From the IMG/VR virus record IMGVR_UViG_3300032270_000610, positions 1 through 35,428 of that record: a DNA stretch of 35,428 nt; one strand, 5' to 3'. Both the position numbers and the translations under genes were made by a program. The notes beneath the pieces were generated by a model. It saw nothing but the letters and a program-made list of their open reading frames with translations. It had not been told where the DNA came from and did no database searches. Every line of letters begins with the position of its first letter. Within the stretch, counting starts at the first letter, position 1. This document shows, piece by piece, positions 4,506 to 32,555 of the stretch. The DNA comes from a virus. Its lineage: Duplodnaviria > Caudoviricetes.

Positions 4506-4633
4506 TCCAAGCTATGACACGGACAATACCCGGGGGGGTAGTAGTTACTCCTGACGGGGGGACGGGTGCGGGTATGCGGAAACTTGCAGAGTTTGGCTAG
4601 AGATTGAACAAAAAACCGCAGTTTGCTTTTCAA

Positions 4634-5149
4634 ATGAAACAACAAAACTACCAGATTGAACAGATCGAAACGGGGAGTCTCATCCCCTACGCACGCAACG
4701 CCAAGAAGCACGATGACGCACAGGTGGCCAAGATCGCCGGAAGCATCCGGGAGTTTGGCTTTAACAACCCGGTGTTGATCGATTCGGAAAACGGAATCGT
4801 TGCCGGTCATGGGCGCGTGCTTGCCGCGCAAAAGTTAGGGCTGGCATCCGTGCCGTGCCTCCGGCTGTCGCACCTCACGGACTCGCAACGCCGCGCTTAC
4901 ATCCTCGCCGACAACCGACTCGCCGAGATCGGCGGCGGGTGGGATGAAGAAATGCTCAAGCTCGAGCTGGCGGACCTCGCCGCCTTGGATGTCGATGTTG
5001 CTGAGATTGGGTTTGATGAAACAACACTCCATGAAATCAATTTTGAACCCGGCACAGAATCGGACCAAGGCAAACTCGATCAACTGGAACCGAAAATCGT
5101 GAAATGCCCGCAATGCCAAAAACAATTCGACGCCCGTGAGCAAGTGTGA
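4634..5149 (+). CDS. ParB/Srx N-terminal domain protein with C-terminal CxxC
   Basis: LIPYARNAKKH...IAGSIREFGFNNPVLID...IVAGHGRVLAA...AYILADNRL; C-terminal KCPQCQKQF. Confidence 0.88.
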   Translation: MKQQNYQIEQIETGSLIPYARNAKKHDDAQVAKIAGSIREFGFNNPVLIDSENGIVAGHGRVLAAQKLGLASVPCLRLSHLTDSQRRAYILADNRLAEIGGGWDEEMLKLELADLAALDVDVAEIGFDETTLHEINFEPGTESDQGKLDQLEPKIVKCPQCQKQFDAREQV

Positions 5150-5834
5150 CCTCAAGATTGATTGGGCCACGCATGAGGCGGCAAAGTATGCCTGTGAAAA
5201 TTGGCATTACAGCGGATGTCTCCCAGCTGGAAAATTGGTAAAAGTCGGCGCATGGGAAAACGGAAAATTTATCGGCGTTGTTTTGTTTGGCCGGGGCACA
5301 AATAACCGGATGGCGCAAGCATATAATCTAAAGCAAGACCAAGCTGCCGAACTTGTTCGGATTGCACTTTTAAAGCATTCCACGCCAGTCAGTCGGCTTG
5401 CTGCCATTGCGATGAAATTTCTTAGAAGGGCAAATGAAGGCTTGCGATTGATTGTGTCCTACGCGGACCCAAAGCAAGGGCATCATGGCGGGATATATCA
5501 AGCAGGGAATTGGATTTATGCGGGCAGTTCACAAGCTCAGAGAGAGTTACTGGTCAACGGGATTTTTATGCACAAGCGAAGCGCTTTTTCAAAATTCGGA
5601 ACTGCTTCCCCGTCTGAAATTCATGCAAAGACAGGACTGAAAGTTGAATGGGCACCGCTTGAATGGAAACACATTTACCTCATGCCACTTGACACCGAGA
5701 CAAGACAGAAGATATTAGCACTCGCCAAACCTTATCCCAAACGCGCCGTAAGTGATACTACGGACACGGCAGGCTTCCAGTCTGCAGAGGGCGGCTCAAT
5801 ACCGACCACGGCGCTCCATCTTCCAGTGGCATAA
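5136..5834 (+). CDS. mom: Mu Mom-like GNAT-fold DNA adenine modification enzyme
   Basis: WHYS, GVVLFG, ELVRIAL, IVSYADPKQGHHGGIYQAGNWIYAG and terminal PYPK are Mom-family motifs; located next to ParB-N just before terS. Confidence 0.8.
   Translation: MSKCDLKIDWATHEAAKYACENWHYSGCLPAGKLVKVGAWENGKFIGVVLFGRGTNNRMAQAYNLKQDQAAELVRIALLKHSTPVSRLAAIAMKFLRRANEGLRLIVSYADPKQGHHGGIYQAGNWIYAGSSQAQRELLVNGIFMHKRSAFSKFGTASPSEIHAKTGLKVEWAPLEWKHIYLMPLDTETRQKILALAKPYPKRAVSDTTDTAGFQSAEGGSIPTTALHLPVA
5743..5818 (+). tRNA. Non-canonical tRNA-Gly(TCC)-like gene embedded in the mom 3' end
   Basis: Acceptor stem GCGCCGT/ACGGCGC (7/7 Watson-Crick), D-stem GTG/CAC, anticodon arm GCAGG-CTTCCAG-TCTGC, 4-nt variable loop, T-arm GGCGG-CTCAATA-CCG(A)CC, discriminator T, encoded CCA; 76 nt in total. 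Confidence 0.8.
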
Positions 5835-5846
5835 CCCTTTTCTATT

Positions 5847-6407
5847 ATGCCAAACAAAACCGAAGCCCAGACCGCCACCGTAACCGTGCTGGCAAATATA
5901 TTCAACATCACGCCCGTGCGAGTGCAGCAACTTGCCAAGATGGGGGTTGTGGTAAAATCGGCGCGGGGAACTTATGAGGTATGGCGATCCGTGAAGGGAT
6001 ACATCAAATATCTCCAAGACCGAGCAGCAGGAAAAGGCATGGGGGAAGGAGACGGAGGCGACTACGAAAAGCACCGCACACGCCTCTACGCCGCCCGTGC
6101 TGACGCGCAGGAAGTCATTTCGGCCAAGCTCAAACGAACCGCGCATGATGCCGAGGCCGTGGCCGAGGTGATGAACGACATGGTGGCCAACGCCCGCAGC
6201 CGCATCTTGGCAATCCCCACGCTGGTCGCGCCAAGGGTGGCCGACGAAAGCGATCCGGCAGTGTGTCTGGAAATCATTCGGGACGCCGCGCATGAAGCCC
6301 TCACCGAACTGACGGATTACAACCCTGACAAAGTTGTGGCCCGTTTTTACAAACAACTGGAAGCAGAGCGCAACGAAAGCCCCGAAGCAGACGAGGCGGA
6401 AGAATGA
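5847..6407 (+). CDS. terS: Terminase small subunit (Nu1-like)
   Basis: N-terminal winged HTH (LANIFNITPVRVQQL...GTYEVWRSVKGYIKYL) followed by a coiled coil; directly upstream of terL. Confidence 0.85.
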   Translation: MPNKTEAQTATVTVLANIFNITPVRVQQLAKMGVVVKSARGTYEVWRSVKGYIKYLQDRAAGKGMGEGDGGDYEKHRTRLYAARADAQEVISAKLKRTAHDAEAVAEVMNDMVANARSRILAIPTLVAPRVADESDPAVCLEIIRDAAHEALTELTDYNPDKVVARFYKQLEAERNESPEADEAEE

Positions 6408-30755: not shown

Positions 30756-30824
30756 CCACACCCGGCGCGGGTTCGATCCCCGCGCCAGCTTGACCAACCA
30801 AACCAAAAACCGAAAAATCAAAAT

Positions 30825-31381: not shown

Positions 31382-31570
31382 TTATCAATATATGTTTTCC
31401 GATTCGTAATCGATAGGTCACGAGTTCGAATCTCGTCGTCGGCTCTCCTTCTAAAAGCCCGCAGATGCCCATATGGATTGGCTCTGCGGGCTTTTTCTTC
31501 GGCTGGGTAAAATTGGTTGAAAGTTGCTCCAAATGGGTGAAAATGCCATCATGGACGCAACGGACGCAAC
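31345..31570. promoter_or_regulatory. Integrase arm-type sites and IHF-like site flanking the attP core
   Basis: GACGCAAC tandem pairs at 31345/31356 and 31554/31563; AATCAATAATTTG (minus strand, 31371-31383) matches WATCAANNNNTTR. Confidence 0.65.
31400..31445 (+). other. attP core: 3' half of tRNA-Thr(CGT)
   Basis: CGA-TTCGTAA-TCGAT-AGGTC-ACGAG-TTCGAAT-CTCGT-CGTCGGC-T gives the anticodon loop, T-arm and 3' acceptor strand. The 5' half is absent and the site is ~105 bp upstream of the integrase. Confidence 0.88.
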
Positions 31571-32555
31571 AGGCAGGAATAAGCCGATCATCACACTTCG
31601 CACGGCTACGGTGCGCGGGGAGCAACGGCATGTGGTTTTTTCACGGATTGCAGGGGTGGAGAAGCGAGTTTTTTTTAAGACCAGACTGGAGGCGCGGATG
31701 GCGCATGACGCGCTTTTGGAGAAATTGGAAACCGGAGGAACGGATGCTTTCAAGAAGTCCGCTGGCATGACGGTAGAAAAAGGCTGGCAGGAATTTCAAC
31801 TGGTGCGGATGCCGAAGCTGAAAGAGGGAAACCACACTCGCCTTCTCAACTGGTGGTGGGGGCATTTTGTGGAGAAATACGGTTTGCTGGATTTGAATGA
31901 CATTAAGCCTGTCCACATTGAGGCGTTCCTGTCTCGCCCAGGTTGGAGCGGGACTACGGCAAATCAGGGCTTCGTTTACCTACGGCTCGTATTCAACTGG
32001 CTGGTGCGCTACGAACTCGCAGCGGCAAATCCGGCACTCAAGATCGACGTGCCGAAGGCTGCACCGGAGCACCACTTGCTGACCGTGGCGGAAGTGAAGA
32101 AGCTTTTGAGCCTTACGAAAAAAAAGACTCGGCTGCGAGCCTGGATCGTTCTGGGTCTTTTTGGCGGGATGCGCATCTCGGAGGTGTGGCGCTGCCGACC
32201 GGAGCATATCGAGCAGACGGAGATTTTCGTGCCTATCCGAAAATCCACCGACCCAAAACCGCGCCCTCGCTTTGTGCCGATCCTTCCGGCGCTGACACGG
32301 AATCTTCCCAAAAAGTGGGATGACTTAGGCGAGGACATCATCAAACGCGAGCGCACGGAGCTGGCTCACGCCATGGGGTGGCAGGAGTGGCCTCAAAATT
32401 GCCTACGACACACAGCAGCCTCGATGCACCGCGCTATGTGGCAAGACAGCGCAAAGACGGCGTATTTTCTCGGTCACTCATCCCCGCGCATGGTGGAGGA
32501 TCGCTACGCCAGAGGAGTGAGGCAGAATGAAGCCAAGGCGTTTTGGGCGCTATGA
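31551..32555 (+). CDS. int: Tyrosine integrase
   Basis: GMRISE (R), LRHTAAS (R), LGHSS (H) and DRYA (Y) catalytic motifs; adjacent to attP. The exact start codon is uncertain (31524-31551). Confidence 0.92.
   Translation: MDATDATGRNKPIITLRTATVRGEQRHVVFSRIAGVEKRVFFKTRLEARMAHDALLEKLETGGTDAFKKSAGMTVEKGWQEFQLVRMPKLKEGNHTRLLNWWWGHFVEKYGLLDLNDIKPVHIEAFLSRPGWSGTTANQGFVYLRLVFNWLVRYELAAANPALKIDVPKAAPEHHLLTVAEVKKLLSLTKKKTRLRAWIVLGLFGGMRISEVWRCRPEHIEQTEIFVPIRKSTDPKPRPRFVPILPALTRNLPKKWDDLGEDIIKRERTELAHAMGWQEWPQNCLRHTAASMHRAMWQDSAKTAYFLGHSSPRMVEDRYARGVRQNEAKAFWAL

Follow-up and report, generated by a model that had tools for sequence, protein, structure and literature searches.

A widespread, mom-linked tRNA-Gly-like element with a bulged T-stem, embedded in phage mom genes, as a candidate glycine donor for DNA modification

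The Mom protein of phage Mu moves glycine from Gly-tRNA-Gly to the N6 of adenine, giving 6-NcmdA, and can use any of the three E. coli isoacceptors (Silva 2026; PMC13219725). Nearly all charged tRNA in a cell is held by EF-Tu, which sequesters Gly-tRNA from the glycyl-transferase FmhB and thereby inhibits it, less so when the tRNA is a non-proteinogenic form (PMC7826273). On such competition, and on the drain on translation, the available text of the Mom paper points only to late expression, and that text holds no mention of an embedded tRNA (PMC13219725).

Three further systems bear on the locus described here. In Staphylococcus, the tRNA-Gly species NP1-NP3 serve as donors for FmhB, FemA and FemB; they are chromosomal, free-standing and unbulged, carry A49-U65, U50-A64 and A51-U63 in the T-stem, and their EF-Tu binding has been measured (PMC7826273, PMC3239215), with a calculated value of -9.5 for the non-proteinogenic type (PMC3239215). 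Exclusion of EF-Tu at the junction of acceptor and T-stem, as we propose below, is also known from tRNA-Sec, which uses pairs 7-66, 49-65 and 50-64 for this purpose, has its own factor, SelB, and still reaches the ribosome (PMC11231383). The third is a conserved, tRNA-Gly-like 76-bp "pseudo-tRNA" reported in mom from 16 Dehalococcoides ssrA islands (McMurdie 2011; PMC3146451), for which the available text gives no function and mentions neither EF-Tu nor a bulge.

The window analyzed here is the whole 35,428-nt stretch of IMG/VR record IMGVR_UViG_3300032270_000610, a temperate tailed phage (82% complete) that carries a primase, a late activator, a ParB-like gene, mom, terminases, head and tail genes, and an integrase. 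By its sequence, the ORF at 5136-5834 belongs to the Mom family (Pfam PF25680, E 1.3e-44 over residues 6-202, 152.7 bits against a cut-off of 27.1); the formation of 6-NcmdA by its product is a prediction. In the alignment, Mu Mom residues H58, Y59, R111, S124, D149 and Y159 correspond to H24, Y25, R75, S86, D111 and Y121, so that six of the listed active-site residues are shared with the Mu enzyme, whereas R151 of Mu is replaced by K113 and W48 by E14. Mu also differs in that no tRNA-like element lies beside its mom and host isoacceptors are used. The Mom domain stops at a YPK motif, and a tRNA-like fold begins on the same strand at 5743; the final ~30 codons of mom are this element translated as protein. 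The features of the locus are as follows.

4604-5149, + strand: ParB-like gene, overlapping the start of mom (context)
5136-5834, + strand: Mom-family DNA adenine glycyl-transferase gene, 232 aa; Pfam PF25680, phrog_1384
5689-5716, + strand: sigma-70-like site (TTGACA, 16 nt, GATATT) inside the PLD...KIL codons of mom, ending 26 nt before G1; candidate promoter
5743-5818, + strand: tRNA-Gly(UCC)-like element, 76 nt with encoded CCA, from the sequence and covariation in alignment A1
5743-5749, + strand: acceptor 5' strand (G1, C2, G3, C4), 7/7 pairs with 5808-5814, among them G1-C72, C2-G71 and G3-C70
5750-5768, + strand: A8, A9 and the D-arm, with a 3-bp stem (5752-5754/5765-5767), a 10-nt loop and the GG shifted 3'; pairs 10-25, 11-24 and 12-23 covary
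5769-5785, + strand: anticodon arm, 6 bp including C32-G38, 5-nt loop, TCC at 5776-5778
5790-5807, + strand: T-arm, with G49-C65, G50-C64, bulged A 5805, C51-G63, G52-C62 and G53-C61; loop CTCAATA at 5795-5801
5808-5818, + strand: acceptor 3' strand, U73 (5815) and CCA (5816-5818)
5847-6407, + strand: terminase small subunit (phrog_57), starting 28 nt past the CCA; late-operon context

Elsewhere in the window, a lone G+C-rich hairpin with a T-arm-like TTCGATC loop lies between small ORFs (~30766-30787, + strand), and a partial tRNA-Thr(CGT)-like sequence, its 3' portion with a T-arm of canonical form (~31400-31445, + strand), stands just upstream of the integrase gene (31524-32555); read by eye, the latter is the likely attP core.

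Like the Dehalococcoides element (PMC3146451), the element at 5743-5818 is a 76-nt tRNA-Gly look-alike that lies inside mom and next to parB, with a DCC anticodon in a 5-nt loop; the former, however, occupies the first 150 bp of mom, the latter the last 92, and 5'-end relatives in our survey are bulged. With NP1-NP3 (PMC7826273, PMC3239215) it shares glycine identity, an altered T-stem at the EF-Tu site, an off-consensus T-loop, a 6-bp anticodon stem with a 5-nt loop, and a tRNA-dependent glycyl-transferase as partner. It differs from them in being phage-borne, in overlapping the ORF of its partner, in its bulge and its G49-C65, G50-C64 and C51-G63 pairs, and in having a DNA-modifying partner, and it is known from sequence.

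All of the features listed in the initial annotation of this DNA are present in the element. A replaces U8 at 5750 and the T-loop CTCAATA departs from consensus, as had been described; the variable region is 4 nt. The acceptor stem and anticodon had been called intact, which is right for the seven acceptor pairs and for TCC, but the C32-G38 pair shrinks the anticodon loop to 5 nt; U33 and A37 are retained. The 3-bp stem and 10-nt loop of the D-arm are likewise there, yet the judgment that this arm is atypical did not survive comparison with canonical viral tRNA-Gly controls, 12/80 of which have the same form, and it was ruled out as a sign of abnormality. What is odd about the D-arm is the lost A14-R15..GG motif, kept in 6/51 full-length bulged elements versus 64/80 controls. 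A compensatory A8-U14 swap was also considered and ruled out, position 14 being variable in alignment A1. Among the marks of a canonical elongator, U8, A14-R15..GG, a TTCRANY loop and an unbroken 5-bp T-stem are all absent from 5743-5818.

ViennaRNA recovered the acceptor, anticodon and bulged T arms; at z = -1.59, the folding of the element taken alone is not above chance. ARAGORN, run on the window and on 52 loci out of the first 80 homologues, called no such tRNA, an Rfam search returned a chance match only (E 6), and the element had no blastn match among cultured phages. The above-chance evidence for the fold is comparative and does not come from the single sequence.

Mom loci were collected with one full-length query (biased to tailed genes), four tail-free queries and 12 cultured-phage records, and their flanks were searched with an identity-blind parser that scores pairing only and does not require glycine identity. 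The shuffle maximum of 40 was exceeded at 131 of 176 distinct loci; L327 (wrong strand) and L494 (false fold) were removed. This search yielded 119 distinct elements beside Mom homologues, 96 bulged and 23 unbulged, so that the bulge, whose conservation in other mom-linked tRNAs had been raised as a check, is indeed a conserved trait. Outside these counts stand five real-looking elements scoring 38-40 (L344, L382, L399, L465, L476) and another, L370, located further downstream. In a Mu-like set of 45 loci, outside the 176, no element was found by an earlier parser that required glycine identity. Since the score cut favors intact stems, the misses were inspected; with the tail-free query from Arthrobacter phage Martha, 51 of 53 distinct loci held an intact element, 2 held none and 0 a half-decayed one.

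The elements are constrained as RNA. Alignment A1, which comprises 42 of the 73-nt bulged elements including 5743-5818, has changes on both sides in 17 of 22 pairs, and 96.5% of its cells are paired, versus 34-44% with slid partners; the acceptor stems of the 119 elements contain 1 mismatch in 833 cells. The protein reading, meanwhile, varies: among the best 120 Mom proteins the tails after YPK differ in reading frame, G1 is the third, second or first base of a codon in 45, 38 and 4 genes, respectively, a stop lies inside or before the element in 6/88 genes, and 8 bulged elements are located at the opposite, 5' end of mom. Occurrence in all three frames together with the kept G1-C72, C2-G71 and CC argues that this is not a decaying pseudogene; in agreement with the earlier suggestion, the lesions are nonrandom across homologues. 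Two other outcomes were seen among mom genes. At the mom 5' end of L516-L522 a tRNA-derived peptide (PLF...P.SPLQ type) is kept, but fold, anticodon and CCA have been lost, so that these Mom N-termini are apparently protein sequence born from a tRNA gene. In L157, an N-terminal remnant of mom is fused to the 3' half of an element, an internal deletion.

Glycine identity is strictly preserved. G1-C72, C2-G71 and CC in the anticodon loop occur in 119/119 elements and U73 in 115/119; among bulged elements, U73 is found in 93/96 and CCA in 86/96. Since G1-C72, C2-G71, U73, C35 and C36 are the major GlyRS determinants (PMC10464925) and all five are present at 5743-5818, charging of this RNA is predicted. 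The minor determinant, purine4-pyrimidine69 (PMC10464925), is absent, position 4-69 being C4-G69 here, and a purine at position 4 is found in 7/96 bulged elements versus 76/80 controls. Together with the modeling of GlyRS domains B1/B2 on the T-stem and elbow (PMC10464925), this deviation suggests that charging may be reduced. At an archaeal locus (L473, Methanobacterium ferruginis), the element after mom is unbulged and has A73 and U51-A63, and A73 also occurs in L500, L501 and L510; an A73 discriminator usually accompanies the alpha2 type of GlyRS. Glycyl-tRNA free of EF-Tu is more exposed to DTD, against which U73 protects.

Other regions have drifted from the elongator pattern. U8 is present in 10/119 elements versus 76/80 controls, U33 in 47/102 (36/87 bulged) versus 71/76, and a TTCRANY T-loop in 29/119; TGC, also present in the T-loop of the staphylococcal non-proteinogenic forms (PMC7826273), occurs in the T-loop of 27/96 bulged and 13/23 unbulged elements. 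Positions 32 and 38 form a Watson-Crick pair in 98/102 elements versus 26/76 controls (84/87 when bulged, with all four pair types), although this trait alone proves little, as the staphylococcal proteinogenic GCC tRNA pairs 32-38 too (PMC7826273). Several anticodon loops have 6 nt. The D-arm is absent from 45/96 bulged elements; these forms (L006, L008, L041 and L045 among them) are 65-67 nt long, 45/45 encode CCA, and an extended anticodon helix appears to replace the lost arm. The tRNA elbow has roles in ribosome and RNase P recognition.

We then examined the T-stem, in which the unpaired A 5805 lies between positions 63 and 64. For 5743-5818 alone, the bulge register and a G.A-mismatch register are equal at -26.6 kcal/mol. 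In alignment A1, both top T-stem pairs form in 42/42 elements in the bulge register versus 33/42 and 41/42 in the other, and the non-bulge register is possible in only 45/95 elements, so that the homologues favor the bulge. The bulged base is A in 95/96, while position 48 is G in 46, C in 35, A in 8 and U in 6. Pair 49-65 is an invariant G-C (96/96), and 50-64 is G-C in 93, A-U in 2 and C-G in 1; covariation adjoining the bulge is thin.

EF-Tu affinity is read from pairs 49-65, 50-64 and 51-63 (PMC3239215), and the bulge sits between two of these three, 50-64 and 51-63. With the bulge ignored, the three pairs of 5743-5818 give -10.0 kcal/mol, no outlier against bacterial tRNA-Gly(UCC) at -10.8 (sd 0.68). 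The energy model used covers no bulged stems, the word "bulge" having 0 occurrences in the available text of its source, and the -10.1 reference is one that we infer from Table 3 there (PMC3239215). Unbulged relatives are more telling: their 51-63 pair is A-U in 14, C-G in 5, U-A in 4 and never G-C, the 14/23 with A51-U63 matching the NP type, and four have G50-U64. Across the family G51-C63 occurs in 2/119 elements versus 71/80 canonical viral tRNA-Gly controls, a frequency overstated in the controls, whose search pattern required a pyrimidine at position 63 and a set T-loop. Predicted EF-Tu binding averages -9.44 kcal/mol for unbulged elements versus -10.64 for 79/80 canonical viral tRNA-Gly, the control mean lying near published bacterial means; all elements are related by descent, the 23 unbulged ones forming 16 clusters at 85% identity. 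Subject to that model, the unbulged class with its weak 51-63 pair gives the strongest independent backing to EF-Tu avoidance. The 5'-end elements, which keep U8 in 8/8 cases yet are bulged, mark the bulge as the core trait, with elbow changes that vary by lineage. The initial annotation had placed the deviations where the translation machinery, and not GlyRS, reads the tRNA. This is borne out for the bulge, which falls in the EF-Tu T-stem; A8, the D-loop and the T-loop, by contrast, are elbow features, and pair 4-69 is a GlyRS-read position that does deviate.

To quantitatively assess linkage to mom, we searched IMG/VR with an RNA pattern, which finds an estimated ~1,700 stretches, and took linkage counts from 120 matches listed. 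Among the matches listed, the bulged pattern has mom within 1 kb in 62/64 full-flank viral loci (62/62 Pfam-confirmed), while a canonical tRNA-Gly pattern has mom beside 0/64 full-flank viral loci and 1/124 overall. The viral control was repeated with a cleaned Mom profile, without the generic GNAT of L094, with the same result. On metagenome contigs, mom was present at 18/31 full-flank matches, which are 18 of the 19 that close the acceptor stem; the 12/31 without a closed 7-bp acceptor stem include none with mom, and most of these look like chance matches in coding DNA, the exceptions being L533 and L540, which resemble genuine or decayed elements that are not accompanied by mom. L111, L602 and L533 each carry a bulged element and have no mom inside 0.9-1 kb; in L111 it follows an ORF that by eye resembles a glycosyltransferase. 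In L094 (558-650, - strand), which is not one of the 64 viral loci counted, a bulged element with a perfect TTGACA-17-TATAAT 13 nt upstream stands beside a generic GNAT acetyltransferase near the contig end.

In a FastTree phylogeny of 85 representatives (including the non-Mom L094), bulged elements occur in all three main Mom branches; Mu and JD024, which are without the element, are sister to one of these (support 0.999). Cultured phages carry several variants. In Salinibacter phage B2_17 the bulged element lies wholly past the mom stop, and Arthrobacter phage Martha (L326, 1107-1177) and Pseudanabaena phage Pan3 (L336, 984-1052) have unannotated, unbulged elements with A51-U63 at the mom 3' end. 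A tRNA-Gly with a tight canonical T-stem neighbors mom in Microbacterium phage Appa, on the opposite strand, and no element was found at 8 of the 12 cultured-phage mom loci examined. The RNA is thus an accessory: Mu Mom can use host tRNA, and an element is missing from several mom genes. Four loci (L114, L565, L572, L605) have a direct tandem of two nonidentical bulged elements downstream of mom, and such divergent copies fit a product whose dose matters. Where mom genes themselves are in tandem (L004/L005 and L119), the element follows only the second. Judged on these comparisons, the element is a real, widespread, mom-linked tRNA-Gly variant, noted once in print (2011), without a function.

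Within mom, the candidate promoter at 5689-5716 is one site found versus 2.3 expected by chance in the region. Among homologues, 48/110 score at least 9/12, compared with a mean of 16 (max 21) in 30 synonymous shuffles; in many close homologues the site lies 24-26 nt upstream of G1, with biased synonymous codons, and the Asp codon of the -35 box is GAC in 43/59 genes (<80% identity) versus 20/55 and 28/57 at other conserved Asp codons. In a second Mom clade 0/35 have such a site, and an internal promoter as a family-wide trait is not supported; the evidence for a clade-limited internal promoter is suggestive.

Retention of the glycine marks, together with a bulge placed where EF-Tu grips, leads us to regard the element as likely Mom's private glycine carrier. 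The element would be transcribed from the late operon or the internal promoter, and the RNA released by RNase P and 3' processing. It would then be charged with glycine by host GlyRS and bound only weakly by EF-Tu, and Mom could use it as a reserved glycine donor for adenine modification of the phage. To this reading, with charging by host GlyRS, weak EF-Tu binding and glycine donation to Mom, we give a probability of roughly 60%. Against it stand the energy of its own three pairs (-10.0, bulge ignored), from which weak binding is not predicted, the use of host isoacceptors by Mu, the 8/12 mom loci without an element, the canonical T-stem in Appa, and the elements of L111 and L602 without mom. 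A wider proposal is that phages across all main Mom branches have an orthogonal glycine carrier written on top of the ORF of the enzyme, that it escaped EF-Tu by at least two routes (the bulge between 63 and 64, or a weak 51-63 pair) and that the D-arm was often shed; for this the arguments on either side seem to us evenly balanced. In titles and abstract openings, in searches that covered few subscription papers, we found no proposal of a donor role for a mom-linked tRNA-Gly, nor, in titles and abstract openings of the literature on bulged T-stems and EF-Tu, any such proposal.

The element could instead be a tRNA mimic that acts in cis and is never a donor, either as punctuation in the late transcript, separating mom from terminase, or as a regulator of mom when bound by Mom or GlyRS. 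The overlap with the ORF in most genes and the position between mom and terminase here would suit this role, and release of the RNA would truncate the mom message, since cutting at G1 would leave it without a stop in 82/88 genes. Yet elements are found at either end of mom, past its stop (B2_17) and in tandem copies, and punctuation would need no strict glycine identity, and we consider a cis-acting role unlikely. Also improbable in our view is that the RNA is a dedicated donor whose bulge is a positive determinant for Mom or the processing enzymes, with the elbow and anticodon loop excluding it from translation. The constancy of G49-C65 (96/96) and G50-C64 (93/96) goes beyond what a mere block would need, and FmhB prefers its tRNAs through their D and T arms (PMC7826273); unbulged relatives, however, converge on weak 51-63 pairs, and Mu Mom is proposed to read the acceptor end only.

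Defenses that act on tRNA-Gly, such as anticodon nucleases or tRNA-acetylating toxins, might be countered by the element as a decoy or as a substitute that resists them. TacT and other GNAT toxins do act on Gly-tRNA-Gly, and altered tRNA loops could resist nucleases, but such a function leaves the linkage to mom (62/64 versus 0/64 for the canonical pattern) unexplained and is very unlikely. An ordinary translating tRNA-Gly that refills the pool drained by Mom is harder still to credit: although the copy at 5743-5818 keeps U33, A37 and a D-arm, and the mom-adjacent tRNA-Gly of Appa has a canonical T-stem, the family loses U33, U8, the T-loop consensus and often the D-arm, and several members have 6-nt anticodon loops. 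Least credible of all is that the element is what remains of a tRNA pseudogene in decay or of an attachment site, preserved only as a protein tail, since, despite the failure of tRNA finders and the true decay in the sister clade L516-L522, the pseudogene reading is already largely refuted by covariation (17/22 pairs), the use of three frames and the 51/53 intact, never half-decayed loci of the Martha query, and the attachment-site reading is ruled out by the separate tRNA-Thr-like 3' fragment (~31400-31445) that the integrase has of its own.

As a reserved donor for Mom, the element would explain how heavy adenine modification can proceed without losing glycine to EF-Tu or draining translation. 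If so, the principle of the staphylococcal non-proteinogenic tRNAs would extend to viruses and to DNA modification. The ~1,700 IMG/VR stretches (an estimate) are mostly missed by tRNA finders and annotated as protein tails. With them one could ask, in a natural setting, whether a single bulged base is enough to block EF-Tu, a point of use for orthogonal tRNA design, and cultured phages exist for both forms: Salinibacter B2_17 for the bulged, Arthrobacter Martha and Pseudanabaena Pan3 for the unbulged. Should the wider proposal be true, these phages would encode a tRNA for DNA chemistry and not for translation, with a natural single-base bulge that blocks EF-Tu, and in the clade of the phage studied here its transcription may start from a promoter hidden in the codons of mom.
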